DNA of 20,000 nt from Atractiella rhizophila (taxonomy: Eukaryota). Every line of letters starts with the position of its first letter. Positions within the stretch are counted from its first letter, which is position 1. Below are positions 1 through 20,000 of the stretch, piece by piece. The stretch spans positions 46,121 to 66,120 of the forward strand of contig MU271395.1 in NCBI GenBank assembly GCA_021432655.1. Direction: 5' to 3'. Under the pieces are notes generated by a model that saw nothing but the letters and a program-made list of their open reading frames with translations, did not search any database and was not told where the DNA came from. Position numbers and translations under genes: made by a program.

Positions 1-935
1 TGTAGGTGCAATGGATATGTAGCTTTTAGGATCTTCTACTCTGATAGATGACGACGTAGAAGGCTCAGAGGTATGCCACTCTTGTAAATCCGGATGTTGG
101 TCAAGGTATTCTTTGAGCCTGTTATGGAAAGGCGAGATGAGCAAAGAGAGCGACGGTGATGGGAGACTAACTTCTGTCGCTCTGTAAGCGTGTTGCTTCG
201 GCTAGCTAGCATTCTGCCCAAGCTACCTATAGTACTGACGATAACCGGGACTCAAAAATTGAAGTAATTGAGGTATTTGCACTCGTTTATGTGTGGTGAT
301 CTCAGAATTTGGAAATGGATGATCGAGTTGTCGGCTTTTACCTGTCATGGAAAAGTATTGCGGATTTCTATGTGGCTAGCATCATTTTTCAATTGCCCAA
401 CCAACTCTACATCCTGATCGATGGACAGCGATGGATGGGCAATCTGTGTCCCTGCAGCTCTTATCTACCCTCTAAAATGATGATACAACATCAGAGGGTA
501 GTAGTAGATTGAAAGTCCACTTTGGCCTCCTTGATTGACTTTACGATTTTGTGATGGGGCTGGAAACCGAAGACTCTCCGGTGCTCTCAGCGCGCAGGAC
601 GAGGATGTTGTCGCCCAATATGTCAGGTACCGAGTTATTCCAAGAACAGGGCTATATTCCAACTACATTCACGCTGCACTCTCCCATTTCCTTGCAAGAC
701 AGTTCAGTTCAAATCGGATCCATAGTATGCTTCCAGGACCAGTTCGATGATCGGTGGCTGCTGCAAATATCATCTGCACATCTGCGGTGCAGGCCCAGGC
801 CAGTCTCCATGTTTTCTGTCATTTTCAATTCCGGCCATGGTAGCCGGATAGCACACTTGTCTCATTCTTCTGTTCATGGTAACGCTTAACATTGACTATA
901 CGAACTATGTCCTGTAATTTTACAATTTCAACTAA

Positions 936-1913
936 TCACAATCCATATTTCGTCGTAAACCCCAAAATTTCCTGGCCAATTTCTTCTGCATGCGTTTCAA
1001 GCGCAAAATGGCCTGTTTCCAACAGCTTGACTTCCACATTCTTCGAGTCCTTCTTGTATGCTTCCGCTCCAGGGGGTAGGAAGAAAGGGTCACCGTTACC
1101 CCAGACCGCGAGAATGGGCACATTACTGCTCCTAAAGTAGTCGTGAAATTTAGGGTAGAGCTTGAGGTTGTTCTGATAGTCGTAAAACAAGTCGAGTTGG
1201 ATCTTCTCTTGCCCCGGTCGCTCCATCAGCGCTTGATCTAGCCAATACGCCTCTGGCTGAATAGTCGAAACGAGAGCAGAAGGGACACCTTGTTCGTACT
1301 GATATTTCGTAGTCTCGAACGCCGTCAGTTTCTTTCCTAGCGCCTCGCGTACTTCGGCACCATTTGTCTCCCAGAGAGGTTTCAGGGAATCCCAGAATTC
1401 AGAGAGACCTATGAAATCACATTCCTTCAATGAGTTATGACCGTTGCAGATTGCAGCCGTACCTTCGTTATACGCGTTTCCGTTCTGCGTCACTATGCCC
1501 AACACGTCCCCGGGCCTTTTCAACGCAATCCTCAACCCTACTGGTGCGCCGTAGTCGAAAATATAAAGAAGGAATTTATTGATTTCCAACTTTTGCAAAA
1601 AGGTTCCAATGGTTTCCGCCAGTGCGTCGAAGGTGTAAACGTAGGAGGAAGGCACAGTCGTGAACCCAAAACCCGGCAGGTCTGGCGCAACAACGTAATA
1701 TTTTTCTGCTAAGATACCTATGAGATGCCTATATTGGTGCGAGGACCTAGAAGTTTCGTTCAAGATCATTTTGCTTGTATTCTCACTGATCACTCACGTT
1801 GGAAAGCCATGAAGAAGCAAGAAGGTAGGATTAGAGGGATTGCCCGCCTTGCGGTAGAACACTTCCGTATCAGGGGACACAGGAACTCTGTGGACTGTAG
1901 TTACTGGTGCCAT
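936..1913 (-). CDS. Alpha/beta-fold hydrolase (epoxide hydrolase/haloalkane dehalogenase-like); exons 1913-1798, 1746-1463, 1408-936
   Basis: Splicing gives MAPVTTVHRVPVSPDTEVFYRKAGNPSNPTFLLLHGFPTSSHQYRHLI...VVAPDLPGFG...IFDYGAPVG...GNAYNEGLSEFW...TGHFALETH. This has the HGFP oxyanion motif, an Asp nucleophile motif (FDYG) and a catalytic His (GHF). Introns are GTGAGT..CTAG (1797-1747) and an in-frame 54-nt GTACGG..ATAG (1462-1409). Confidence 0.93.
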
Positions 1914-1991
1914 CGTTCCTCAATACTTGCGATATATTTTGCTTGATGTCGGGAGTGTTTCAGTTTGTGCGGAACCCATCCATGCTTCCTC

Positions 1992-1998
1992 TTTTATA
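1992..1998 (-). promoter_or_regulatory. TATA box (TATAAAA) of the hydrolase gene
   Basis: The + strand reads ttttata, which is TATAAAA on the - strand, about 80 nt upstream of the ATG at 1913. Confidence 0.5.
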
Positions 1999-2312
1999 GC
2001 CTCAGGCTGCCCAGCATATCCTGTGTTGTCGCAGGGAACACTCTGTACTCCATCTCTATTCACTTCCTCTTCCACTACTCACCTTTCCTCGGTGACAATT
2101 GCGGGAACGGGATGAGTCAGCGGCTGAGAACTTCGCTCTCCTCAATTGGCGCTGAGAGGTTGCAGCAGTACCTTTAAGTTCTTCGGCTGTTGGTCAATGT
2201 TGGTCGCTCCACACTCTTTGCATACGCTGGATTAAAGAGAGACCAGTTCGTCAAGCAAGAGATCGCGACAGTTACTGTTTTTGGTGATCGGTGTGCGGGA
2301 GGCATTCCGAGC

Positions 2313-2975
2313 GGTCACTGTTCTGGGTTACCCTACACTTCATTGAGCTTCATCGATGCTTCATCTTCATCTTCAGACTTGACCTCAAAACTTCCAACTC
2401 CCGACCTCCCGCTTAATCTGCTAATCGATATGAATCGATGTCAAATGCCAAATCTTTCAATTCAGCCTGTTGGGATGGGGTGAAATGGATGAAGCATGAA
2501 GCAATTCAAATTGCATGTGCCCTCAGATTCTTCTGAGCTTCGACCATTGGGCGGAGCAATTCACGTATTTCATGTCTGGCTGAATGTCTTTTAGCGCTCA
2601 CCCCCGGGTTAAGGACTGGGTTATTCTGAAAGGCGTGTGGGTGAGGTCACTGTACTGGGTTACCTACACTTCATTGAGCTTCATCGACGCTTCATCGTCA
2701 TCTTCAGACTTGACCTCAAAACTTCCAACTCCCGACCTCCCGCTTAATCTGCTAATCGATATGAATCGATGTCAAATGCCAAATCTTTCAATTCAGCCTG
2801 TAGGGATGGGATGAAATGGATGAAGCATGAAGCAATTCAAATTGCATGTGCCCTCAGATTCTTCTGAGCTTCGACCATTGCGCGGAGCAATTCACGTATT
2901 TCATGTCTGGCTGAATGTCTTTTAGCGCTCACACCCGGGTTAAGGACTGGGTTATTCTGAAAAGCGTGTGGGTGA
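2313..2975. repeat. Direct tandem duplication, two copies of about 331 bp (2313-2644 and 2645-2975)
   Basis: Both copies start ggtcactgt and end gcgtgtgggtga. By eye they differ by about 8 substitutions and one 1-nt indel. The ORF track shows the same peptide (YTSLSFIDASSSSSDLTSKLPTPDL...) twice. Confidence 0.95.
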
Positions 2976-4419
2976 TGAGTCGAGCACTTTTGACATTGTT
3001 TGATAGGGATTACAGTAAGCTAAGTAATCCGAGGAGCAAACAGGAGACGCTGATTGTCATTTTTGGCCGCCATTTTGCTCTCAAGCAGATGAAAATGTCA
3101 AGATATCTAGAGTGCCCTCATTGCAGCAATGAAGGATCGTTTTCGGCCCTTGCCTGGGATCACCTTGATTCCTTCTGGTCTGTCTGGGCTGACTGCGCCA
3201 TGGTGGCCAGACTGCGGTGACGTGAACGTTTCAAGCTTTCGCGCATGAGACTTTCAGAGCACCCTGACTGAAGGTTATGTGGTCTTTTTGAGTCGTTGAA
3301 TGGTGCAGAGCTGGCGCACTGACTCTGAATTCATGAGCTGTTCTTTTGGTCTCGTTTCTTACTTTCCCTTCCATTTCCTCATACGACATGTTGAACACCA
3401 ACAGCGATGTGAATACAAAGGCTCTCATTGCGAATCTGAAAGATGCTCGATTTCAGATCGACCCCAAGTCAATGGTATTCGGGAGCGCCAGCTCCATTTT
3501 GGAAATACAGGTGATTGGAGGGAGATGGAAGATAGAAAATACCAAAATGAAGGAAGCACTGACAACAGCGGGAAAGGTGGCTCATTATCTCTTTCCCAGG
3601 CTTTCTCTCTCAAGGTCCTGGATCGTGATTACAATAATGATTGATGTGGCAGGGATGTGCGGAAAGAAATGAAATAGACGGAAGATACAGGAACTGTCCA
3701 ACATTTTATGTTGGGGTGAAATGAAGTGCTAGTTTATCAGTTATCCGAGCACTTTCAACCCTTGGACCCCCCAAACCTAGCACAGTACTGACACCATAAA
3801 GGGTCACCTCCTCTTCGTCGCGACTGTTGCGACTGGGAGGTCTGGAAAAGAGTCCCAGCCCAGGATCACGGAGAGTCATCCGAGAACCTTATAGTATCTA
3901 GATCTGGCCTGGCCTGTGTTTCAATCAAAAAAGCCCGCGTCCACAGTCAAGGACCCTGTCTCAAGTCCCCAGTCTCCCTCAGCAAAACGACCAGCACAGA
4001 ACACCTTTAGCTACGTCCAGCGCGTTCAACAAACTCCAAAGGTCTGGGGAGCGCAGGAAATTGTTCGACCGGTTTCCGTTTCCAAGTTTGAGAAGAAGAC
4101 TCCGACGCGGACTTGGTTCCTCCCGAGCGCAAGTCTCAAGAGCGTAGAAAAATTCTAGGCTTCGGCTTCAAGATTGTTGCAGGCTGATTTTGGATCCTTT
4201 GATAGCGTTTAAGATTGGGCGTTGGTGAGTTGAACGCGCTTTCCGAACTTGTTTACGTTAGAAGGGGAGGAGTGTCGTTTCTTTCATCTTTCATCTGCCA
4301 TCTGAAGTAGCCTGGAGCTGGACTTCAGCGTTCGATTATCTTTATCATCCTCTTTGCATCCTATGCAACTAGCTGCAGGTGACTGACTACCATTGATTCC
4401 CGTTATTCCTCACGTCTAG

Positions 4420-5062
4420 AACGACGAAATGTCCATTCACAGCTCTCCGTCTTCCTCTTCTCTTCGAGGTGCCGAGAGTCAGAAATCGAAGAACGAGGAA
4501 GGAGAAGATCCAATGACCTCAAAGGATAACACTCTCAAAGCCTCTCAAGTTCGAAAGCTTTCCCTTGGGCCGAGTCCTCAACCTCAACCTCTTCCTGCTC
4601 CCATCCAGTTTCGAAGCCTTCAACAAATTGATTTCGAAGAACCAGCTTCCTCTAGCGTTACCACCGTCAAGATGGCCATCGTGGACTCTCCCCAAAGTCT
4701 ACCTCCCTCAGAACTACCCACGAGACCTACTTCGTTCGCAGACAGCCCTGTAACGGCTGAAGGCGCGACTGGAATATTGGACCTCTATGATTTCAAATCA
4801 GAAGAGGGAGATCTAGCTGCTGAGATGGAAGGGCTTTGGGATAGGAGCATGGAGAATCAGGCTAACGTGGATGCAAGGGAGCATTCTGCTGCGGGTGAGC
4901 ACCTGTTCACTTACGTTTTGTTGTGGCTGGAAAGGCTGGTCGTCTGAGCCGTTAGCATCCAATATCAGAAACCTCGCCATTGGGGCTATTGCTATTTTGT
5001 CATTTGTCGTCCATAAGACGTTTCGAGCTTTTCTCGAGGCTTTGTTCGGCCCTTCTTTATGA
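4420..5062 (+). CDS. Hypothetical Ser/Pro-rich protein with hydrophobic C-terminus; 5' end uncertain
   Basis: The 172-aa ORF at 4429-4947 has a phase-1 intron GTGAGC..TTAG (4895-4955) that splices in frame to ASNIRNLAIGAIAILSFVVHKTFRAFLEALFGPSL*. An acceptor (ctag at 4419) lies in frame just before the ATG, suggesting further upstream exons. No family recognised. Confidence 0.45.
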
Positions 5063-5661
5063 ATGCGCAGTTATATAGGGTCTAGGTCGGACTATCACTT
5101 GCACCTTGGCATTATCCTGCTTTTCTCAGTGCCGTGCCACCTCGCTTTCTGTTTTTGGCGTGTGACGGTGATGATGAAAGCATCAAAGAAAGAGGCAGTT
5201 CAAACCTACCCTCGATCACCGCTTGTGCATGTGAAGCGGGCGGGTTTGGTTCCGCAGTTCGGTGCGGAGGGAGGGAGACGAGTGTCGTGCGTTTGTCCGT
5301 CTCGGTTGTATCGAGGCGGAGGAGAGATGAAACCGACTCAAGGAGCGATCATGGTTTCCACGTTGAATGATTGATGACAAGTTGTAAAAAAAGCATGGCA
5401 TAGAACAACGAAGAGGAGGATCTCATCCGAGGATCTGCACTCTTATGATATCCTTTGTCTCTACTTCCCTTTTCCTCCCCCTCCAGCTCCAAATCTGTTG
5501 AATACCCACAGAGCACCTTAATATCTTTCCGTTTTGTCTCGGTTCGGCAAGAAGGAACCTGGATGTTCTAACTCACTTGTCGTCAACTTGCAGGTCCCTA
5601 CCAACAGGCTTCCTCTACGTCTCGAAGCAGTCCCACCCCCCAATTATCAGACCCTCATCGA

Positions 5662-6554
5662 ATGGCCTCACTCTCGACCAAACGCTCCTACTCAGCTCTC
5701 TCTAATAACAGCATAACCCCTACCCCTCCAACTACAAGTAAAGTCCCTTCCAATCCTGCCTCGCCGGGCTTGGGAGCAACAGCCTCTTCCCCGTGGTTAA
5801 CGTCGAGCACCGCTCACCACCCGAATACGTTGAAGAGCAAGATGTCAGCCACCTCCCTCAGGTCCATCCCCGAAGGCGCTTACCTGCCCAACGAAGCCTC
5901 AGCTGGCGGAAGTCCGCTCTCTCCTTCCGCCTCGTACCAGTCATTGTCGTACGAGAACCATCCCTTTGCCAGACCCCGGGCTGGTATCACACCTGAGCTT
6001 TCGTCAGGCAGTTCCTCCAGCCGGGCTAGTAGCAGCCTTTTCAGCCCAAGCAGCGCTGTGAGGAGCAGTGTTCATTCCACGGATGGGGAAACCGACGATT
6101 CGCAGAATCTTAATAAGAGAACCGTCTATTCAGATTGGATCCCCCCAGCTGGATCACAGCCCTCCTCCGTTAATTATCACAGTCAAGAGGGTTCTATCGG
6201 CGAGGCGGAGGAGGCTCGTCAGGATGGCACTGGCATGGTCGGTCTTGGTATCACCTCGGATGAGGCGGTGGAAAAGGCAGATGATGGCCAAAGAGTTTCT
6301 GCTCAACGGAGAAGGGGTTGGTCGTTGTCCCAGACGGGGGGGATGACCGCTTTGGATATGAGGAGAGCAAGCATTCGCGGTGGATTATCTCAACCACAGC
6401 TCAAGACATTGCAAGCTAGGTTGGAGAAAGCCGAAGAGCAAGCTTTAGGGAAATCTGGATATATTCCGGTCCCCTCATCGAATCTGCAGCCCCTTTTATC
6501 TCCTTTCGTCGAGATGCCGAACGAGAAAGAGTACGACTTCCCGCCGACGATCCC
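5662..6554 (+). CDS. 5' part (true N-terminus) of the LRR-RhoGEF-PH gene, cut off by the N gap
   Basis: ATG at 5662 opens a Ser/Pro-rich ORF that runs to the gap. 5887-6554 is nearly identical to 10716-11383, which continues into LRR, DH and PH domains. Confidence 0.85.
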
Positions 6555-6579
6555 NNNNNNNNNNNNNNNNNNNNNNNNN
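6555..6579. other. Assembly gap (25 N)
   Basis: Run of 25 n characters. Confidence 1.
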
Positions 6580-8011
6580 ATTTGTATGGGCACGGATAGG
6601 CGCCAGGTACCGCCAACTTCTATCCTTGACCACCTTGTAAGTCCTCGAATGGAAGGGGACCACGAGTTACCCGAGGTAGAGGACCCTGTGGGTGTTGACC
6701 TGTTCCGTGATGATACAGAGGCTAAGGAAGTCAACCGAAGGCTGAGGAAAGCTTTAAAGACTTCTACCCTTCAGCACGTTCTATAGTTCGATGTAGTTAT
6801 TAGACCTGGGCTTCTTCATAAGACTTCAGATATTTCACGAGCTCCTGTAGAAGGGAGCAAAGTATGGATACAAACTTTCTCAGAATAGCCTGAATCTCCT
6901 CCGGCACTAGTTCGCCCACCGCCTACCCACATCGCTCTGAGCCAGCCTGCTTCTTCTGCTTCTTCTGCTTCTTCCGCTTCTTCTGCTTTTTCTATTGCTA
7001 CTATTGGTGCTACTAAGACGCCTCCTCCTCTTTCTTCCACTTCTACCACCCCTTCTTCGCAGTCGCGGTGGAGGACGTCGAGGTCGAGCGTTTTCGGAGC
7101 CGCCAAGCCGGGAGCGCGTAATAAAGCTTCCTTCTTGTTCATCTCATGCCAGAGGCGGTAACCCTGGAGTTTATACAGTTCTTTCGACGAGTCCGCCTCC
7201 AGAGGCTACACCCACTTATAGGAAGTCTACCGCAAGTGCGTGCCGTCAAACGGTTGAAAGGTTGACATAGCGAAGCGCCCTAGTGCGAGTTTCAGTAACA
7301 GTTCGAACGCTTGTAGGATGAGTGCGGCCTTTTCGGCTGTATACTACCCCCTTTTACCGTGCATCTCCCATACTCCTTGCTCCGGTAGCAGAGCTGACCA
7401 TAGATAATAATGCTTCTTCTCTTGTAATGCCTCTCGTTCAACTCGAAATCTGCCCGCCACCTACTCCAATCAAGAAAGGAAGGCATAAGATATTCGAACA
7501 CAGTCACGATTAATCGCTTGACTTTTCGGACTTCTAATAGGTGTCTCGCTGTGCCGTCGTCACTACCGGCTCATGCGGAACGCTCCCAGACAGAAAGAGG
7601 AGAGAAGGGAGGAATGGAGGGAGTTTGACACATGTCACTACCTGGCGATTTGGTTGGGGACCCTTCACACCAGTGGTTTTTGTCCCCTCTACGTAGCGGA
7701 AGGGATTGATGTTAGTTGTGACGCAGAGAAGAAAGAGAGAGTAGCTGGGCTGGTTTGGTCCTGTAGCGTTTTATAACCAGAAGAAGGAGCAGCTAGGATG
7801 ATTTCTATTTCAGGGACTATGGAGGTAGCAGGGTGGGGTCGTTCGTCTAACCATATGGGGGCTTCTTAACTTCCTCCAACCTCCTGTTGCTTTCCGAAGC
7901 TTTCTCCTCCGTATATTCACCTCCGACCTCAACTACCTACTCGCATCGCTGAAACACGTGTTCTTGCTACTCAACCAAAAATTACACCCAAAGTTATACA
8001 CACTCGTAACT
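6580..8011. CDS. 3' part of the DUF4246 gene, readable only as the complement of the + strand in the left-to-right direction (minus strand once the block is un-reversed)
   Basis: The complement translates as KHTRAY...SDSFSWLPTPFEISEDGKSCKISSYINNLDPKKYSEVYKVLEDIFPRFIPMFERVLSDL...LRGITLKVIVKLANILLTPEKPTYDGGKWHVEGMRNEAIVSTGIYYYEEENITESKLSFRR...GRCIAFPNYNQHCVSSFSLIDPTKPGHRKILVFFLVDP...FNMCEH*. GT-AG introns lie at 7467-7527 and 7587-7636. About three single-base frameshifts fall at homopolymers. Confidence 0.92.
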
Positions 8012-8148
8012 CGCGACGCAACCCGCCAACTTAGCTTCAACTCGTAAACTGGTACACTTTGGACTACCTAATTCAGAACATGACAATCTGTTGTAGAACC
8101 CTTTATTTAATGTTACGCATAGTAAGACAGTCGGTTTTTCGTTGAACT

Positions 8149-9069
8149 AGTTAGTTCCTGAAGTTAGAAGCAAGGAAAAAAGGGTTGAGGTTAAGGAGGA
8201 GATCAAGGCAAGAGTGGAGGTCGGTGAAGACGACGAAGGTTGGTAGATTTTGTGGTTCCTTTTTGAGCTGAAAGAAAGAGAGGGAGAGGGAAAAGAGTAG
8301 ATGGTAGGTCGAGGTATAGAGCGGGTTAGGAGACGCACGCGCAAGGAAAACGAGCTCATTAGCCATCTCCAGCCACTCCTCCTCTACCTCGTCGACTAGA
8401 AGCCACTAAACACGATACCTCGCCTTCCTCCTCTACCGCTTAAAATCTCTCGGTACCTCCCACGCCAGCCACCTCCTCTTCTCCTTCCCTCGCTCACCCG
8501 CGTCCTCCCCTCCCTCCCCCTCCCTCTACTCGCCACCTATATTTGTATTGTGTTAGACAGGTGGCGTCAGCCAGTCATTCACGAAGCTGCACCATCGTTC
8601 CTTCTTCATGTTATGCATCTCCTATAACATACAATTTACTCCTCGGAGCGCAAGGTTTTAGCGTAGGTAAGGAAGTCCGCTTCTCAACCTGCGAAGGGAA
8701 GAAATAGCAGTTGGGTGGTTCCGAGGTTAAGGAGGGAGAGGAGAGGTCTTCGAAGGCGTTGAGGAGGAGGGGCCGACTCAGAGGACTATCGTAAGCGAGG
8801 GTGGAGAGGGAGAGGAGGAAGCTTTCGTAAGGATCTTCGAGGAGGAGTCAAGGGGGGATAAAGGTGGAGAGCGAGAAGAGGTAGCGGAAGACTAGGGCTT
8901 AGGCTCTTCGCAGGAGCTTAAAAGAAGTTCTATAAGTAGTAGCGGTGGAAGAGGAGAAAGCAGGAAAACGGTAGCAAGAGTTAAAGGGCGCGATAACTTA
9001 GAGCTATCTTTAAGAGACTCGTGAACTCTACAAAGAGAGGGAACTTTGTTCGCTCTCTCGTCATCCCCT
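8149..9069. repeat. Mirror-image copy of the zf-HIT gene 3' part (equivalent to 19103 to about 22 nt past the window end)
   Basis: The reversed sequence matches 19103-20000 and extends it with ...GTKIEVLD* (stop at mirrored 8151-8149). Confidence 0.93.
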
Positions 9070-9664
9070 TATACGATAGGGTAAAGTGACGGATGGACAA
9101 GATTTAGGACTTGATTGTCCGAACGCGGATGCCAATCCTTCTCAGATTCTGGAAGATCTTCGAGTGGGCGAAGGGAGGAGATGAGGGCGGAGCGCGTGGC
9201 GGAAGGTATCAACAAATCGCTCTGCCAGATCCCGTCGATACAGGAAACCTCAATGCCATCTTCGGCTCGAAGTCTGTCGTACTCCTACGGAAACAGATGA
9301 GACAACTTACAAATCAAAGAAAAGAACGAACCTCCAATTCCTTTAGCACCCAGTCGACGGCTGCAGCGCTTAGCTTTCGCTTGATGTAGGCTACAGGTAT
9401 CTCTTGTTCTAAGGCTTCCTCTTTCCACTTCTCGCGGATCGTCTCGTCCTTGTATTTCTGTGTCACAAGGGTTTCAGTCTGGAACCGTTCTTGTGAGAGA
9501 GGTCTTACCTCCCACCATTGCGGTTTGGAGCGAATTGAAGCAGACAAGAAACACATCCTCAGCTCAGTGGTCGAAAAGAGTGAGTTAGATCCCCCAGTGA
9601 AGGGGTTTGGATATTCCTTCGGCGCATTTGGGCCGCTTGGGTCTTCATCCGAGTAGTCTGACAT
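9070..9664 (-). CDS. DUF4246 family protein, 5' part; exons 9664-9509, 9457-9332, 9284-9070
   Basis: Translation is MSDYSDEDP...ELRMCFLSASIRSKPQWWEKYKDETIREKWKEEA...AVDWVLKELEEYDRL...IDGIWQSDLLIP...LEDLPESEKDWHPRSDNQVLNLVHPSLYPIV(Y). The IRxKPxWWxK and DWHPxSxxxVLxLVHPSLYP motifs are typical of DUF4246. Introns are canonical (9508-9458, 9331-9285). Confidence 0.9.
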
Positions 9665-10330
9665 CGCAATCAATGAGGTGCTGATTCTGGGATCTTCTCC
9701 CTTTTAAGGACACACAAAGAGAAGGATGAGTCCTATGACTGCTGTTGAGCGGACGTTCGGCTGAAGGAGCATGTTGCACTACTATGCGCGTGGACTTACT
9801 GCTGTATAGTTCAATATTGAAACAAATCAGAGCAGACGTTGCGCAGAAGACGCGAAGTAAGTCTTGATTGCTGTTTGAACCAGGGAGTTGACAATTTGTC
9901 GACTATGAACTGGATCAATCAACACAATTTTAAGGTAATGTTAATGTTAAAGCGCTATATACCTAGTTTTTATGAACCCCTCCAACTTATCGATGGGAAG
10001 GGACAAGCGATCTTGGAAGTAAACTTGAAGTGATGGAGTTGGAAGGGAGAACTACCAAGTCCGGAAATTTGGTGGGCGGAGTGGGACAAACTGCCCTGGT
10101 GTAACTCTTGTGCTGTCAATATCAATTAAGTCTTACTGCTCAGCAAGTTGTTTTGAGTGTTTTGACATTCGATTTATTTCCTTGCCTAGTATGTATGGTG
10201 AACGTTGCAACTGCCGATTCGGCGAACTGCCATGCCATCTCCGAAGTGAGGGATGGATGCGATTGTGTTTCGTGTTGTCTAAAACCTGCAATTACAAATA
10301 ATCAGATTGTACTGCAGCGTGAATGATCAA

Positions 10331-10715
10331 TCAATCAATCAAATCGTTGTATATGTGGAAAGGCTGGTTAAAACCATCGAATCCGAATCGTGCTTCTGCC
10401 TGACTTCACTTCTTTCATCCATCAACTTCAACCTCCACTGCTCCTTCGAAACCTGTCTTTGTCTATCAACCTCCTTCAACTCTTCCGGAGTATACTTATA
10501 CTAATCCTCCTGCTGAGTAGGAATGATGGATGTATCAGGACTTCGGTCGCTGTAGGATCGACAAGGAAGAAGACCAAATGTTATATAGTCGAAAATGGGA
10601 AAGGCGATACATCTTCCCTCTTTGGTCATCACGCTTCTGAGAGGCTGTTTGAGTCGGCCATCCCTGTGACTGGAGTGTAAGGAGGAGGACGGAGGAGAAG
10701 GGGGTGCGAATTTTA
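10331..10715 (-). pseudogene. Degenerate DUF4246 paralog fragment (last exon plus part of the preceding intron)
   Basis: After a ...gtcacag acceptor it reads DGRLKQPLRSVMTKEGRCIAFP..LVFFLVDPT..PDTSIIPTQQED*YKYTPEELKEVDRQRQVSKEQWRLKLMDERSE. This is collinear with the last exon of the intact gene (DGPLNQPLGSVVTKQGRCIAFP...PDTSIVPPQQADWYTPEELKEV...WRLELMDERSD) but has an internal deletion, frameshifts and a Trp-to-TAG stop. Confidence 0.85.
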
Positions 10716-11383
10716 CCCAACGAAGCCTCAGCTGGCGGAAGTCCGCTCTCTCCTTCCGCCTCGTACCAGTCATTGTCGTACGAGAACCATCCCTTTGCCA
10801 GACCCCGGGCTGGTATCACACCTGAGCTTTCGTCAGGCAGTTCCTCGAGCCGGGCTAGTAGCAGCCTTTTCAGCCCAAGCAGCGCTGTGAGGAGCAGTGT
10901 TCATTCCACGGATGGGGAAACCGACGATTCGCAGAATCTTAATAAGAGAAATGTCTATTCAGATTGGATCCCCCCAGCTGGATCACAGCCCTCCTCCGTT
11001 AATTATCACAGTCAAGAGGGTTCTATCGGCGAGGCGGAGGAGGCTCGTCAGGATGGCACTGGCATGGTCGGTCTTGGTATCACCTCGGATGAGGCGGTGG
11101 AAAAGGCAGATGATGGCCAAAGAGTTTCTGCTCAACGGAGAAGGGGTTGGTCGTTGTCCCAGACGGGGGGGATGACCGCGTTGGATATGAGGAGAGCAAG
11201 CATTCGCGGTGGATTATCTCAACCACAGCTCAAGACATTGCAAGCTAGGTTGGAGAAAGCCGAAGAGCAAGCTTTAGGGAAATCTGGATATATTCCGGTC
11301 CCCTCATCGAATCTGCAGCCCCTTTTATCTCCTTTCGTCGAGATGCCGAACGAGAAAGAGTACGACTTCCCGCCGACGATCCC
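10716..11383 (+). repeat. 668-bp direct repeat of 5887-6554
   Basis: Same sequence at offset 4829. Differences seen: TCC/TCG (Ser), ACC/AAT (Thr/Asn) and GCT/GCG (Ala). Confidence 0.97.
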
Positions 11384-14300
11384 CCGCAAGGCGTTGGCGA
11401 GGTCCAACACCAATCCACACACCACTACCCTCTCTACTCTCTCGAGCGAATCGCAGCGATTGTCGTCCTACTCAGGCAACTCGTACGAGCCTTCATATAC
11501 CTCGTCTCGCGAGCATCATGCAGACGGAGAAACGGATGATGACGACGACATTGATCCCTATCCACCAATTGACCACCTCCCAAATATTGACACGGAGAAC
11601 TATAGCCTCGAAGTTCCTGTGCTCAAGCATGGAGTGATCAAAGCAGAACCCACTGCTGTGGTTGTCGCAGAGGAGGGTAGAGCCGTCATCGCCGACAAAT
11701 CTGGAGAGTCTCTGTTTGGGGTTCGTTTGACTGATGGTACTGTTCCTCTCTTACATGCTTTTTCCGTGTGCTAACGTTCTTACATAGGCACAACGCATTT
11801 GCTGCTTCGTCACACACAAACACCTGATTTGGTCATTCCTTGCTTGATGGATGCTATTCCTTTGATCACTCAAACCCTACTAGTCTTAGACATTTCGTAA
11901 GTGTCTAACTCTTCCGGGCACTGGATCTGACCCAATCCCCTAGCTCCTGTCAGCTTCTGGAAGTCCCCAAGATTCTTTCGTCCTGCCAGGCTCTTGAGGA
12001 GCTAAATGTTTCTTCAAACCCACTCGACTGCCTGCCATCTTTTCTCAACAGAATTACTTCTCTGCGAGTTTTGATGGCCGACAAATGTGGACTGATCACT
12101 CTTTACAACGACCTCAGCGACCTCCAGAATCTCCATACCATCTCACTCAATGACAATGCACTCAGAGCTCTTCCAGCCTGGCTCTGTCAACTAGCATCTC
12201 TAGAGCATCTCTTCTTGGACGGAAACGCGTTCCAGTCGGAATGGCAGAAACTAATCAGACCCGTTCTACTGAGGCGAGACGAGCGCAGTAACTCGACCAA
12301 CACGGATTTTGCCTCCTTCCCTAGCTCTAATACGATGTCATCTGCTTCCTCCATCTCCGACGGTTCGATTTCTCAGGGCGAACAATCGCCTCCACCTTCT
12401 TCTGGTTACCTGGAAAAGCCTGCTTCACCAGCTCGAAGTCGATTGATGTCGTTTGGTCGAGCTAAAGCCCGTCCTGAGCTACCTTCTGTCGCGTCGAGCC
12501 CATCCATAGAGAGGATGCCTGCACCGCAGCCGAAAAGAATGAGAAGTTACGGTGATATGGACCTCAATTTGTCTACGTCCTCTGTCGGCAGCTCGCCCCG
12601 CGAGTCCATGATTGAAGTCAATTCTCAACTCAGCTCAGGGGCTAACTCTCCCATCGCGCCAAGCGCTTCGATACGCTCCCTCAACAACTCGATCCCGTCT
12701 ACTCCGTCTCCTCTCGCTAGCGTGCAACCAATCACATTCGAAGGGGACGAGGGCGATAAGGATGGGAAAAAGCGAAAGTGGGGCTTCCTCAAGAAGATGA
12801 GTATGACCACAATGAACAAGCATCCAGAGCCTCGTTCAGCCAGGCCGCATCGACACAACGATGAAGGTCGAACGGCGTCCGACTCATCTAGCTCCTATCC
12901 TCGTTCTGCCAGAGGAAATGGCTCTTTGCTTGGTCGTCCAAGAGCAGGGAACAGAAATTCACAGCTGATCGTGGAAGAAACAAAGACTTTGAATAAACGT
13001 CGAAGTTTCCTCCTCCTGCACAACAACACTAGAGCTGTCACCCCAGAGCCAGCAACTCCCGACGCTTCTTCAGATAGCAATGTGGTGGATTACAAAGCTG
13101 GACTGAAAGCCATCATTGCTTATCTACAGGATCTCAATGATCTGACTCCAGCTCCTGGAGGACCAGTTCACCGCAACACTCAGGCATCAGCCTCATCGCC
13201 AAACCTTTCCGCATTGGCCTCAGGTAATGCGTCCCAGCCTTTGCTAAGGAATCCTTCTTCCCGTAGAGGCACGGATGCTATGGGCTCTTTCGACAGCTCC
13301 GGAAGGTCCACGCCAACGCCTAACGAAATACAAAAGGAACCAGCGATCAAATGCAAGGAAGATGCAGCACGTAGGGAGAAGATTCTCGAGGAAGTGCTCA
13401 GTAGCGAGCGCACCTATCTTCGCCAACTGAAAGAAATGGTGGATATCTACGTAAAGGAGGCCGAAAAAGAGGTTGCAGTCAGTAGCACTGGCAAGAAAGA
13501 GCCTGTGGTTCCGATCGCAGAGAGACGAACCATATTCGGCAACATCGACAACATCATTCACTTCCATGAGTCTGTCTTTTTGCCGAACCTCGAATCAGCG
13601 GTGGAGATTCTGTTTATAAAGCGTAAAGCGGGCGATACAGTCGATACAGCCTTCATTCGTTTCATGGCGGACCAGGTCGCTCGCGTCTTTACCCAACATT
13701 CTGCCTTTTTCAAGTGCGTATACCACTTCGCTCCGTTTTGTGCTCATAGTGATCACAGGCTCTATGCTCCATACATCAACAACTTTGATCTGGCGCTGTC
13801 CCGTTTAAAGGCGTGGAATGCCCCCAAGTCTCCGCCGCCACCGACATCTTCCAGCAGCTACAGCATGGCAAAATCTGTTTCGTCAATGGGTGCGGCTGTC
13901 AGCTTGGGGATGTCGGGCATCACAGAACAGAACAGCAGCATGCCGTTGTCTGAAAGTCAGAAAAAACGACTCAAGGGATACTTGAAAAAGTGCAAAGCTG
14001 ATCCACGTCACACTCAAGTGTCGTTGGAGAGCTACCTTCTACTTCCCGTTCAACGCATCCCTCGGTACAAACTCCTCCTCGAGAACCTTCTGTCTTGCAC
14101 TCCAGTGGACAACAAATCACTGATGCCTGACCCAGTCATCAAGGAAGCTGCTGATATCATTGCAGAGATCACTGCTGACATGAATGAGAGAAAAAGGGAG
14201 AGTGAATCACGACATCGATTAGTGAGCACGTCGCAATTCTGCTAATCTTGGTTAATGTGTTTCTTCAGCTCTTCTGGCAACAGCGTATTCGCAATAGATT

Positions 14301-14870
14301 CCGCTCACCGCTCGTTCAACCCCATCGACGGATGATGAAAGAGGGCACAGTCGTACTTATGAGGGTGCTAAAACGAAGATCGCAATACGTTGATGTTGGG
14401 CAACAGTCCTCGGCCGGGGACGTGAACTCCAATTCTGGGACCCTCCCAAGTGGCGAGCGAAGCCTTATACAGGTCAACTCGTTGGAAGTGGAAACTGAAA
14501 CTAGACGTCTGGTATGGCCATGGAACCTATTGTGACTTATCTCACGTCGGAGATAGATTGCCCTCTTGTGCAGTGACATTCTTGTTCTGTGCAAAGAGCC
14601 AGAAGATGGAATGGATGGCACTGGTCCCGTCGATCTCTACACCGTCATTCGTCTCAGTCCCACTCCGGGGGTTAAGTCAGTTCCAGCTAGCATGTTTGGC
14701 CCAGCTGGTTCCAGTATGAATCTCATGCCATCTAGCGTATCGCGCAAGCTAACTCTGGTCTCACAGTGATCCGCTTGGTGGATAGCCGAGCGATTTTGTA
14801 CCTCAGCTGTCCTTCCCATGCCGAAGCTCTCACATGGGTCGAGTCGATCAATCTTCAGATGCAATCGTAA
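10716..14870 (+). CDS. Leucine-rich repeat + RhoGEF (DH) + PH domain protein; this copy lacks the first ~75 codons
   Basis: Exons are 10716-11736, 11788-11896, 11944-13713, 13759-14221, 14269-14511, 14557-14713 and 14767-14870. LRRs: LLVLDISSCQL, LEELNVSSNPL, LHTISLNDNAL, LEHLFLDGNAF. DH: RREKILEEVLSSERTYLRQL, IFGNIDNIIHFHE, LYAPYINNF, SLESYLLLPVQRIPRYKLLLENLL. PH-like C-terminus: LLCSDILVLCK...AEALTWVESIN. Confidence 0.92.
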
Positions 14871-15633
14871 TTTAGAACTCCCAATCTCCCATTTCTTTCA
14901 ACTTTCAGTAAAGCATCTAGTTGTTTCAGATCCAAAGCAGCTCTAACGGCCTGTTCAATTCACACATCAGCAGATATCCTTTTGTATCAACAGCTTAAAA
15001 CATCCGATCTTCAAAATTCTTGATTATTTGAGAAAAAACATAGATGATATACTCTTTGGTTATTCACCTTCGGTTTTCAGACTATAGTACCAGTATATCC
15101 ATCCCTGTTCTTGTTTACTCTGTGTTGCGCTACACTCTTTCCTCCCATTTTAGTTTCTGTGGGCTCAGTTGAAACCATATACTATTGGTCCTGAAGTTGT
15201 CCACATATATATTCATTCCGTCTTACACTTTCTTATTTCAAGATTGATACTTACGTTCCTTTTTGTTGTTCGATTTAGCTGTATTCCTCCAAAAGAGGAT
15301 TAACCTTCTCTCTCCTCTCTCTCCTCTCTTGAGTACGCTGTTGACTCGCAACCCAGTCGTCCTTCACTTCTTCCATCCACTCTCCCAGCTTCAGTCCATC
15401 ATTTATTCGACTCTTTTTCAGGTGATGTAGTTGTCTCTCTTTCGGGTGCATGAGATGCAATCAAATCAAGTTCAAAAATCGAGCTTCGAGCTTGGAGAGG
15501 AAGAACTGGAGAGAGTGGAGTGGAGATCGTAGTCATACATTAACATGAGGCTCCCTCGAAACAAAATGGGAGACACGGTGATTTGTTATTCCCAAATATG
15601 TGGTCAGTTTCTGACAACATAACGATCCTGCCT

Positions 15634-16362
15634 TTAGCAACAGGAGGCTCCCACCTCTTGGACTTCTGCTTGGCCTGTGAGAGTGTCTCTGGCGAATGTA
15701 AGATAGCCAAATCCAGCGCCTTAGTGCAAATGTCAACTTGGAGTACGGTAAAGAGAAAACGGACGGACCGAAGAATATTGCGAAGAGGATGATGACGTTA
15801 AAGTACATCCCCAAAAGCATGAGAAGGAACGCAACCGTGAATTGGACCGTGAACAAGAATGCACGGATTGAGTGCTCGAAAAGCGTTGGCTCGAATGTGA
15901 TCACTGATGGGAGATTGCTGTCCCTTGTTGCGTTGAAAAGCTCAGTCCTCATGCCACCACAGAAGGAGAAGCTAAAGCTCACCGCTTGTTGAGGGAAGTC
16001 ACGGAAGATGAATCCTTCACGACGGCTGAGGTGGCGTTCTTCTTCTTTCGCACGATGTAACGATCGAATTCCCTCATCGATCGCCGAACGCCTTCGACGA
16101 GGAATGCCATGAGGAAGATACCGATGAAGGTAAAGGCAAATGCAGCTGTGATCTGTCAGCATGGGATGTCTGCTTGAATGCATTGCGCACTTTTGGAGCG
16201 AATATGCCAATCTCGCGAGAGGAAGCAGGCGTCCTCGACGTACCAGTTGAACAGCATGCTAATCTGTTATCGTCACAATCAATGAGTAATTGACGCTGTA
16301 AATACAGTTGTGGGAAGACTCACTTTGCAGGCATGGCCGCTTCCGTCACCACCCATATCCAT
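15634..16362 (-). CDS. Ctr family copper transporter (Ctr3/Ctr4-type high-affinity), 5 exons
   Basis: Spliced product: MDMGGDGSGHACKISMLFNWYVEDACFLSRDWHIRSKTAFAFTFIGIFLMAFLVEGVRR...EHSIRAFLFTVQFTVAFLLMLLGMYFNVIILFAIFFGAGFGYLTF...GASCC*. It has the CKISMLxNW motif, MxxxM in TM2, GxxxG in TM3 and a C-terminal CC. Confidence 0.93.
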
Positions 16363-16550
16363 TTTGCTACGTGAGAATTTGAGAACTGAGAATTGAGAAC
16401 TGCAGGAGAGGCTGGAGAAACTGTCAGGAGCTTCTGGAGATTGCGCATGCAAGAGGGCCTCTTTTATGGCCAAGTCGAGAAGGTTGGACGCTCCCGGATC
16501 AAGTCAGAACATCGATGTTCCCATCGTTGTTCCGAAACGGAGCTAGCTGA

Positions 16551-16558
16551 TGAGCAAA
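16551..16558 (-). promoter_or_regulatory. Copper-response element (TTTGCTCA, Mac1/Cuf1-type) upstream of the Ctr gene
   Basis: tgagcaaa on + is TTTGCTCA on -, about 190 nt upstream of the Ctr ATG. A near match (agagcaaa) lies at 16658-16665 and a second exact TTTGCTCA lies on + at 17147-17154. Confidence 0.5.
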
Positions 16559-17343
16559 CAATGAATGGAAGGAACGGAGGAGCATAGTCCTCCCTGCTCC
16601 CGTTGAGAGAGGCAAGCAAGTTGTAAAATATCCAGTCTATCATTCGAAATTAGAGCAAGAGCAAAAATGTCTCTCATCTCAAAGAAACAAGAGGCCTTTG
16701 TGCTATTGGAATATCTAATGAAAACTGCACCGCCATCCTGATGAACATCTCCTCTTATCAATGGGTTACATATCATATGACGGGCAATTTATCGGCAACT
16801 CTACTTGGAGAGCAGCAGCCCCGTCACGATCCGTTGTGCGCGCTTCGATCTCATAAGCCATAACTTCTTTCGTTAGTTAGACTTGTCCATTCCGTCCTTA
16901 ACCCAGATGAAGGAAGGGAGAAAGAAACTGCAAACACTAATTGGAGGTGACATCCTATGGCATATTCTATAGCTGTGGATTGAGCTTGAGGCCACCGCAA
17001 AAATCGCGCAGAGGGTCTTCTGCTGCATCCGCCCACTGCAAGCATACGGTGCATCTTCCAACATTTGGCGAGAAGCCTAACCGTCAAAAGGAAAAGCATA
17101 CATCAACGCCGAATGACAGAGAAAATGCAAACCTTCTTTCTCCCCTTTTGCTCAAGCGCCAACCACGACGGTCGTGATGGGTAGACTAAGTGAACGCTTG
17201 GAGGTATAAATATTTAGAGACTATGCGAGTACCGATACAGACACATAAGCTTTATCCTCTTCTATATCAGTGTTCATTCGAGCTGGAGGAAACATTGGAC
17301 GTACCACTTCAATCACTTCACTGAGAGGTAGCAATGGGCTCTT

Positions 17344-18743
17344 CTAAAGGAAATAATCCAGCGGCACCGCTTTCGCCGGTATTTTTCTTGCATCCTAGGA
17401 CCCCCAAAATATCGTCAGTGAGTCGAATGAGAGGAGATTTGGGGAATGAAGAAGTGGAAACGAACGAGAGGAGCTGCATCAAAGGTCTTGAAGGTTTTTT
17501 CGAGGGAATCATCAAACGAGAGAATGGAGGCGACATTCCCACACCTTGCTATCCTTTGTCAGTCATTCATTATTCTGAAGATGAAACAGCCTACCGATAG
17601 CAATAGTTAGGCGCCGACCATACTGTTACAAGGCGACGGTCAAACTGCATCTTATAGCCTTCCATCACCTGTAATCGTCGTCAGGATATGAAAGCATCTG
17701 AAGAAAGAGAAGTGGGAAGAGGAGAGAGCGGCTGACAAGCTGGTGCGCTCGAGCAATTAGTTCTAGATTGTTGTCATGCACGAACTTGTGGCACACATCC
17801 GCTCCAAACACATATCCCGCTCCACGCGGAGAGATGCTCCATCCTTTGATATCTGCTCCAGCACGAGTATCACCATCGGAGAAAGAAGTGCGAGGGAAAA
17901 GATACCTTCTGGGTCTGACCATAGGAGATCACACATTGAGCCGTCGTGTGGAACCTCTTGTTTGCGATCAATGAGGACGATCTATAATCAGTCAGTCACC
18001 ATTAGCACATGAATTCAATCAAGGAAGAGAAGAGCACACTTGATCCACGCTCTGCACGCTCGGGCTCAATCCACCATGGACACATAGCACCTCCTCCTGA
18101 ATCAAGGCCGCAAGTGGTAAGGTAATCGAAGACTTCACAGCAGTACCTCCAGACGCTACTGCTGCCGTATTTTCGAACGCATTCGTCGTAGAACCCATAG
18201 ACTTGCGTTATTTGCCGCGATTCGTGGTTTCCTCTGATGAGTGTCATCCGGTCGGGATAGCGCACTTTGAGGAGAAGGAGGAGGAGGAAGGTCTCGACAC
18301 TGTAGTGACCGCGGTCGACAAAATCACCTGAAGTATATACACATGTGAGCGATGTGAATAGAGGGAAGATGAAGTGAAGATTGACGGACCCATGAATAAG
18401 TAATTGGTATCTGGACACATCCCTCCTGTCCGGAAGAGCTCCATTAAATCCTGAAACTGTCCATGTATATCGCCGCAAATCTATTCGTTCCCTTTCATAA
18501 GCATTCAGACCAGAGGCGCTTAGACCGGAGAAGGGACACGAACAGTGATTGGAGCCTGGACGCGCTCGACATTGCCTTCTTCGATCAAAATCTCCCTCGC
18601 CTTCAGACACAACTCTTTCACCTCCGTCTCCGATATTGGTTCGCAACGCTTCAGCTGTTCTATCTGCCTGTACACCCGCCTCTTCTTCAGAGGCTAGAGT
18701 CTCACAAGGACAAAGAAACTCACCTGTCAATGTCGGAAGACAT
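17344..18743 (-). CDS. PPH3: Serine/threonine protein phosphatase 4 catalytic subunit (PP2A-like PPP family); one apparent +1 frameshift near 18120
   Basis: Spliced product: [34 protein letters not shown]...ICGDIHGQF...GDFVDRG...[39 protein letters not shown]...CVHGGLSP...[22 protein letters not shown]...[10 protein letters not shown]...RAHQLVMEGY...[13 protein letters not shown]...LDYFL*. The DRQIEQL, KYGS..VWRYC and [11 protein letters not shown] segments match PP4 better than PP2A or PP6. Confidence 0.92.
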
Positions 18744-18767
18744 GGTCGCCGTTTTGAGAGGTGGAAC

Positions 18768-18777
18768 ATCACGTGAT
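18768..18777. promoter_or_regulatory. Palindromic E-box ATCACGTGAT in the short divergent promoter between the PP4 and zf-HIT genes
   Basis: Perfect 10-bp palindrome containing RTCACGTG (Cbf1/bHLH-type site) in a ~115-bp intergenic region. Confidence 0.4.
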
Positions 18778-18857
18778 ACGAAGAACGCGAAAATCGCCCA
18801 CACCTTCAATTGTTTGTCAGGTCGATGCTAACTTGAGAGCGCGGTTACAACGCAAGG

Positions 18858-20000
18858 ATGGATGCACGAAAGGGCCCCCAGACGTCACTTCTATCACTTT
18901 CCCTGCGCCCACGAACGGCCATCTCCAGCCAGCGGAACCACATCAGTTTTCTTCTCCTCAACCGCTCGGTTCTTCTTCCTCTGCCACCTCAACATGCCTT
19001 CTGTATGTCATGTTTCTCCCTGGTGTGCCCAGATGCTGACTACAAATAACGCTAAAAGGTGTGCGAAGAACGAGTCCCGATATATCTGCCCAAACTGCAA
19101 CGTCCCCTACTGCTCTCTCGCTTGTTTCAAGGGAGAGAAACATCTCAAGTGCTCAGAGAATTTCTATCGAGATTCAATAGCGCGGGAAATTGAGAACGAT
19201 GGCAAAAGGACGAAAGAGGAGAAGGTGGCGATGATGAATATCTTGAAGAAATTCGAGGACGCTTCCTCTCGGATTCGGGATCAGAAGGCGATGGAGAAGA
19301 GCGAGAGGTGGAAATAGGGGAAAGAGGAGGAGCTTCTAGGAATGCTTTCGAAGGAGGAGAGGGAGAGGTGGGAGCGAATGCTATCAGGAGACTCAGCCGG
19401 GGAGGAAGAGTTGCGGAAGCTTCTGGAAGAGGAGAGGGAGGAATTGGAGCCTTGGTGGGTTGACGATAAAGAAGGGAAGCGTCCAACTCTTCGCCTGAAG
19501 GAATGGATGCGATTTTGGAACGCGAGGCTCCTCATTTAACATACAATATCCTCTACGTATTGTACTTCTTCCTTGCTACCACGTCGAAGCACTTACTGAC
19601 CGACTGCGGTGGACAGATTGTGTTATGTTTATATCCACCGCTCATCTCCCTCCCCCTCCCTCCCCCTCCTGCGCCCACTCGCTCCCTTCCTCTTCTCCTC
19701 CACCGACCGCCCTCCACGGCTCTCTAAAATTCGCCATCTCCTCCTTCCGCTCATAGCACAAATCACCGAAGATCAGCTGCTCCATCTCCTCCTCACCGAC
19801 CTCTACCGATTACTCGAGCAAAAGGAACGCGCACGCAGAGGATTGGGCGAGATATGGAGCTGGATGGTAGATGAGAAAAAGGGAGAGGGAGAGAAAGAAA
19901 GTCGAGTTTTTCCTTGGTGTTTAGATGGTTGGAAGCAGCAGAAGTGGCTGGAGGTGAGAACGGAACTAGAGGAGGAATTGGAGTTGGGGAAAAAAGGAAC
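18858..20000 (+). CDS. HIT-type zinc finger protein (ZNHIT2-like), running past the window end; several apparent frameshifts
   Basis: Removing intron 19003-19058 gives TCLLCAKNESRYICPNCNVPYCSLACFKGEKHLKCSENFYRDSI, resembling the ZNHIT2 pattern RYxCPxCNxPYCSLxC...CxENFYRD. Later segments include LLGMLSKEERERWERML, LEPWW and HLTYNILYVL. The start at 18858 needs a 1-nt correction. Confidence 0.8.

Follow-up and report, generated by a model that had tools for sequence, protein, structure and literature searches.

A block of 2,490 nt beside an assembly gap in this contig is written in reverse order without being complemented, and we conclude, with a probability of about 0.96, that this mirror block is an assembly artefact lying over an ordinary gene, a data error rather than a biological feature. 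The gene is a single member of the DUF4246 family that spans the 9070/6580 join, and the organism very probably carries it in intact form. The window, by which we mean the whole 20,000-nt stretch of DNA analysed, is fungal and has short GT..AG introns. A Pfam scan covered 11 of its proteins, seven of which had hits; in addition to the features given in Table 1, these included a Ctr copper transporter, a metallophosphoesterase, and a zf-HIT gene. Toward the left of the window, positions 2313-2644 and 2645-2975 form a 332-nt head-to-tail duplication of 97.3% identity, which could stem from two alleles placed side by side in a further assembly error or from a true tandem repeat.

Table 1 Features of the window, in order of position. 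Residue numbers are those of P0003, and "complement" denotes the complement read from left to right.
Feature	Position	Strand or reading	Basis or remark
Alpha/beta hydrolase	939-1793		Pfam
668-nt stretch left of gap, part of LRR-RhoGEF gene	5887-6554	+
Assembly gap, exactly 25 N	6555-6579		Sole N run of the window
Mirror block, 2,490 nt	6580-9069	Reversed without complementing	Adjoins the 25-N gap
DUF4246 coding exon 3, remainder	6580-7466	complement	177/177 and 117/118 residues equal to P0003
Frameshift 1 (+1), 3-base run	7110-7112	complement	Comparison with P0003
His426 and Glu428	7359 and 7365	complement	Within 6580-7466
Intron, GT..AG	7467-7527	complement	Acceptor 7527 or 7515, both in frame
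Short coding exon	7528-7586	complement	23/23 residues equal to P0003 over 7516-7584
Intron, 50 nt, GT..AG	7587-7636	complement	Agrees with P0003
Last coding exon, ends FNMCEH	7637-8011	complement	Stop TGA 8009-8011; 13/13 and 107/110 residues equal to P0003
Frameshift 2 (+2), 5-base run	7677-7681	complement	Comparison with P0003
His512 and Arg528	7718 and 7766	complement	Within 7637-8011
Reversed copy, 3' part of zf-HIT gene region	8171-9069	Reversed	Same DNA as 19103-20000
DUF4246 coding exon 3, first part, to false stop at block edge	9070-9284	-	PF14033 positions 21-85 of 401; P0002 (165 aa) ends here
Intron, 47 nt, GT..AG	9285-9331	-
DUF4246 coding exon 2	9332-9457	-
Intron, 51 nt, GT..AG	9458-9508	-
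DUF4246 coding exon 1, ATG at 9664, DUF4246_N domain	9509-9664	-	PF21666; matches P0002 and P0003
5' UTR intron, 67 nt, GT..AG	9733-9799	-	Joint in X3
Second copy of 668-nt stretch, 4 differences	10716-11383	+
LRR-RhoGEF gene	11909-14242		Pfam
zf-HIT domain PF04438	18832-19314		Pfam match
Normally written copy of the block's far end, internal control	19103-20000	+

Plain reversal of the block

Within the mirror block, the true plus strand is the plain reverse of the letters as written, and the true minus strand is their complement read from left to right. When the window was compared with itself, the plain reversal of 9069-8171 matched the normally written copy (887 of 906 columns identical, with 15 gap columns), and this match began exactly at 9069. 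The same comparison recovered no reverse-complement partner of the block within the window; plain reversal alone matched. The initial annotation had placed both ends of a reversed block here, and its right edge is fixed independently by this match and by the loose ends of read contigs described below.

Homology searches gave the same orientation. In a tblastn search with 39 homologues, none matched inside the block as written, and 37 matched its complement read from left to right. We also assessed the block with a home-built DUF4246 profile rather than the Pfam PF14033 model; the profile consisted of 114 homologue rows, with P0003 and P0004 left out. Across 12 readings it matched at 6665-7024 (1.4e-30), 7131-7472 (6.3e-41), and 7676-8011 (3.5e-39), in the complement reading only, and the three matches cover profile positions 198-556 of 558. 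On the normal minus strand it matched 9631-9329 and 9281-9048. The initial annotation had staked its reading on a DUF4246 match in the complement, and both searches found one. A 5-mer orientation score, which is noisy and weak, was negative in all four block segments and positive in six of the seven outside (9701-10300 was negative).

The block carries introns and two genes, all readable only once it has been turned round. A true inversion yields a reverse complement, and we know of no polymerase that writes a plain reversal, which together argue that the mirror block is the product of a software fault. We considered a true biological inversion of 6580-9069 and rejected it because the block has no reverse-complement match and only plain reversal fits. 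Trans-splicing was also rejected.

Continuity of the gene across the join

Two Atractiella rhizophila proteins are 100% identical to the exon at 9072-9284, and they lie on different contigs. P0002 (165 aa; contig of 74,494 nt) is a stub, and P0003 ('hypothetical protein BT69DRAFT_1299897 [Atractiella rhizophila]'; contig of 64,578 nt) is a full-length, 608-aa near-identical twin of the window gene. The minus-strand exons from 9664 to 9070, once spliced, translate exactly to P0002, and the block edge as written supplies a TAA at 9069-9071; the earlier observation that the frame as written ends after HPSLYPIV is thus correct. Because P0002 ends exactly at this TAA, the false stop must already have been present in the sequence given to the public gene caller. 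A reversal of the block during later handling of the record, and not in the deposited assembly, is for this reason highly improbable, since a public protein already ends at the exact residue where the as-written edge makes its stop.

When 9070 is instead joined to the complement of 6580, the codon at the join encodes Tyr, and the resulting translation is identical to P0003 over residues 1-343. Tyr is also the commonest residue in the join column of the family alignment (74 of 116 rows).

To these comparisons we added contigs from four public sequencing runs (X1-X4; 15 runs were found), which were compared with 6580-20000. X1 is DNA, and X3 was taken as RNA by inference from its splicing. X1 and X2 derive from one sample, perhaps not the source of the window; they differ from the window at many sites, and the sample may represent another strain or haplotype. 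In both X1 (DNA) and X3 (spliced), the match of the contigs to the window breaks off at 9070, and the loose ends beyond it are identical to 6580-6609 in reverse order (30 of 30 letters), an agreement expected by chance about 7e-14 times in any of the four readings of the window. It follows that no base is lost at the join, as the initial annotation had proposed from the sequence, and that the transcript continues past 9069.

Record 16 of X3 skips three GT..AG introns (9733-9799, 9458-9508, and 9285-9331) and continues beyond 9070 for 386 letters of the turned-round block. A spliced transcript therefore crosses the 9070/6580 join, and transcripts ending near 9069, which the initial annotation had named as evidence against its reading, were not what we observed. 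Record 9 of X2 (2,677 nt) covers 10081-9070, matches the decayed paralogue fragment (10577-10441) after 1,192 letters, and has last 77 letters equal to 20000-19924, so that a single contig spans the flank, the turned-round block, and the normal copy. X4 gave no cover of the 9070 flank. Depth was zero over 6580-8819 in all four runs, which is no proof alone given that X4 is also uncovered over 8820-11059.

These results bear directly on the possibility that the gene truly ends at 9069 and that the mirror block is real DNA from an unknown copying process. Such an ending would agree only with the window as written and with the annotated 165-aa P0002, which probably derives from the same faulty sequence. 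Both DNA and spliced contigs pass 9070 into turned-round sequence, the introns and two genes of the block can be read only after turning, and the block starts exactly at the gap; we consider a true end at 9069 extremely improbable.

The contigs also bear on the accuracy of the two zf-HIT copies. Several indels that change the frame separate the zf-HIT 3' region of the block from its normal copy, and at three of the block-versus-copy indels (19709, 19751, and 19876) the X1, X2, and X3 contigs agree with the block; the sequence at 19103-20000 carries errors or represents another allele. Both copies are missing one base at 19489 that is present in the X1, X2, and X3 contigs. Given these indels and the shared missing base, neither copy looks error-free.

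Exon structure and reading frame

The window gene and P0003 are identical over residues 1-343 and match at 117/118, 23/23, 13/13, and 107/110 residues in the later segments. There are four residue differences (344, 520, 522, and 527); P0003 is without frameshifts and uses an acceptor at 7515. P0003 and the window gene may be alleles or recently diverged paralogues.

The initial annotation had followed the frame through two introns in the block to a terminal FNMCEH. The FNMCEH ending and its TGA are present, and the intron at 7587-7636 has GT..AG borders and agrees with P0003. The intron at 7467-7527 is also bounded by GT..AG; its acceptor lies 12 nt beyond the one used in the P0003 model. Residue spacing at this intron is 8-9 in 52 of the 76 parsed rows (of 116), and acceptor 7527 gives a spacing of 9 compared with 13 for acceptor 7515. 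Family spacing thus favours 7527, as first annotated, without being decisive.

The uninterrupted frame did not hold, because two frameshifts had been overlooked. The model with both introns comes to 1818 nt, which is a multiple of three only because the +1 and +2 shifts cancel, and when translated as written it contains six internal stops, the first at codon 378. The frame from the ATG to the family C terminus is therefore not open in the window copy and is open in P0003. We tried an intron pair that would absorb the second frameshift and rejected it, as all of the resulting models lose conserved residues.

Several comparisons suggest that the two frameshifts are probably consensus errors of the pasted piece. 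First, the X2 contig falls 3 nt short of the block over two intervals (1192 versus 1195 over 6580-7774 and 1588 versus 1591 over 6580-8170); this shortfall equals the sum of the frameshifts, although it compares lengths and not letters, and another 3-nt difference could explain the offset. Second, all 38 parsable homologue rows have two residues at the second frameshift, like P0003. Lastly, indels between the block and its normal copy are frequent. The statement that the gene is intact thus draws on evidence from outside the window sequence, namely P0003 and the shorter spanning contig, and on these grounds the earlier proposal of a gene that is probably intact rather than truncated is supported.

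It might instead be that the reversal is an artefact and this gene copy a true pseudogene in the source strain, with real frameshifts and with P0003 as the working allele or paralogue. The two shifts in the block, the four residue differences and separate contig of P0003, and a decayed DUF4246 fragment nearby, which indicates that the family decays here, all fit this possibility. We nevertheless consider it unlikely: both shifts fall in single-base runs, the 15 gap columns in 906 between block and normal copy show that small indels are frequent here, the contig of X2 that spans the block comes out exactly 3 nt shorter, and a loose end of X3 behind 10495 starts with letters present in the reversed block at 7851. 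One gene across 9070/6580, intact in the organism, remains the reading we prefer.

The decayed fragment is the frameshifted 3' portion of a second DUF4246 gene at 10387-10671 on the minus strand, 47% identical to residues 486-595 of P0003. It has the same orientation as the main gene and lies upstream of it. Because it is covered by X1 and X2 contigs it is real DNA, and in the true genome the 5' part of this second gene is probably located past 10714. An X3 contig connects the zf-HIT 3' end (20000) with DUF4246 3' sequence (10441). The zf-HIT and DUF4246 genes are convergent and may overlap at their transcript ends, and a contig across both is no proof of a single transcript.

Scaffold order around the gap

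The order of the sequence surrounding the gap is also doubtful. In both X1 and X2, the letters before 10716 equal window positions 5857-5886 (30/30) and not those at 10715, and the X2 letters behind 10714 are absent from the window in all four readings (first 14 letters tested). No piece bridging 10715/10716 was present among the matches listed, bearing in mind that contigs drop rare variants. The junction at 10715/10716 is free of N, has no support from the run contigs, and splits the LRR-RhoGEF gene, whose 5' part probably lies at about 5660-5886. The window is probably mis-ordered around this junction, and the simplest true order is probably 1-6554, 11384-19102, the block turned round, 9070-10714, and then sequence outside the window. 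Under this order, 9070-10714 plus its extension would be misplaced.

Alternatively, the source strain could carry a real 12.5-kb tandem duplication with its junction at 10715/10716, the middle of which collapsed into the gap, so that the reversal alone would be artefactual. The absence of N at the junction is consistent with this, as are the 668-nt and 898-nt repeats, which flank the gap in the order expected of a collapsed tandem copy, and the few bases by which the copies differ. The contig letters on either side of the junction speak against it, those before 10716 matching 5857-5886 in X1 and X2 and those behind 10714 in X2 matching none of the readings, and we regard a real duplication as rather unlikely. 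The question is one of scaffold order, and a duplication would leave the conclusion that the block is an artefact unchanged.

Possible origin of the reversal

In the reading that we favour, the organism has one DUF4246 gene here, whose minus-strand transcription begins at about 9900, passes 9070, and proceeds through the sequence shown as 6580-8011. During assembly, a 2.49-kb piece, probably an extension of the 9070 contig end toward the gap, was pasted in reversed and uncomplemented. The edge of the block creates the false TAA at which gene callers report a 165-aa stub, and the remainder of the gene is invisible to six-frame searches. The pasted piece also probably bears small run-length errors, two of them shifting the frame, as length and P0003 suggest.

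A one-sided gap extension pasted the wrong way fits a block that starts at the 25-N gap, is seamless at 9070, and contains run-length errors. We infer that the reversal arose at a gap-extension step, and a long-read gap filler is a reasonably plausible candidate for that step. In parts of its published description, the long-read gap filler PBJelly treats runs of 25 or more N as gaps and extends contig flanks into them, and 'overfilled' gaps are tied to scaffolding errors (PMC3504050). The window resembles the setting outlined there in its 25-N gap, its extension-like block with small indels, and its doubtful contig order (PMC3504050). Reversal without complementing is not among the behaviours given in those parts of the description (PMC3504050), and the program behind this assembly may differ. 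A literature search for a published account of such a reversal fault or gap-filler artefact, judged by listings, returned nothing on point.

DUF4246 as a predicted oxygenase

The gene encodes both domains of its family. PF21666 scored above its curated cut-off on 9317-9664 of the minus strand (29.6 bits versus 27.4) and reached 41.9-44.2 bits on the spliced P0003 and P0002. PF14033 scored 62.6 bits on the window at model positions 21-85, and 398 bits (6.6e-119) on P0003 at positions 2-399 of 401. The DUF4246 family (PF14033 and PF21666) comprised 4,065 representatives at E values up to 0.001, and shares with this gene both domains, their order, conserved blocks, and a C-terminal ending in ...CEH. 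Within the family, this protein differs notably only in a long acidic insert of low model confidence, spanning roughly residues 285-335. One 1,143-aa Rhizoctonia protein (P0001) appears to contain two full DUF4246 units in tandem, and may be a gene model in which neighbouring paralogues were fused.

An AlphaFold2 model of P0003 built from a 116-row alignment had a pLDDT of 86.8 and a pTM of 0.88. The best match of this model in a Foldseek search of the PDB was to HrmJ (E value 2.8e-5). With VIA-align, the model matched BelL (8jms; Z 13.6, rmsd 3.2, 197 residues aligned), HrmJ (9dq0 and 9dqq; Z 13.3), TqaL (7eeh) and IDO (6lnh; both Z 12.1), and PHD2 (Z about 11). These enzymes have a double-stranded beta-helix core in common with the model (Z 13.6-11, 175-215 residues aligned), whereas identity is 7-15% and DUF4246 is nearly three times longer. 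The top structural rows are tied, so none of these enzymes stands out as the nearest. At the sequence level, searches against solved structures returned no meaningful match (best E values 0.85 and 0.39). A structure search of the Atlas recovered DUF4246 clusters followed by 2OG-Fe(II) families under its naming bar, and an Atlas feature search yielded no usable match outside DUF4246.

Fe(II)/2-oxoglutarate oxygenases are characterised by an H-x-D/E...H iron triad and a distal basic residue. The DUF4246 family conserves an H-x-E...H and a distal Arg that fit this motif: across the 116 alignment rows, His426 is found in 113, Glu428 in 113, His512 in 115, and Arg528 in 113, and all four are encoded in the mirror block. 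His426, Glu428, and His512 are predicted to bind iron and Arg528 to bind 2-oxoglutarate within the double-stranded beta-helix core, and the protein would work by oxidising a substrate with iron held by the His-Glu-His triad and 2-oxoglutarate held by the Arg. On the basis of conserved residues and modelled fold, we consider the DUF4246 protein a likely Fe(II)/2-oxoglutarate-dependent oxygenase, with metal binding, activity, and substrate all at the level of prediction. Domain databases presumably already hint at such a fold for DUF4246.

More tentatively, the hidden gene, intact and expressed, could possibly belong to a family that forms a branch of the Fe(II)/2-oxoglutarate oxygenases not recognised so far and that, by analogy with its closest structural matches BelL, HrmJ, TqaL, and IDO, acts on free amino acids or comparable small metabolites, as opposed to protein or nucleic acid substrates. 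Our search found no literature naming DUF4246, with most subscription papers outside its reach. For 'PF14033' it found, judged by listing, only works on Plasmodium or its relatives, apparently through gene-identifier matches, and alternative identifiers gave none.

Implications

For data quality, the case shows that plain-reversed blocks next to gaps go undetected by BLAST and six-frame searches, conceal genes, and introduce false stubs such as P0002 into public databases. A genome-wide screen of such assemblies for reversed sequence is worthwhile. For the biology of Atractiella rhizophila the finding means little, as the mirror does not exist in the fungus itself and public protein sets already contain a full-length twin: what looked truncated is an ordinary, expressed fungal gene of the common DUF4246 family, made to appear so by a backwards block. 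As a side result, the analysis yields a testable hypothesis for the family, namely that its members are probable Fe(II)/2-oxoglutarate oxygenases.
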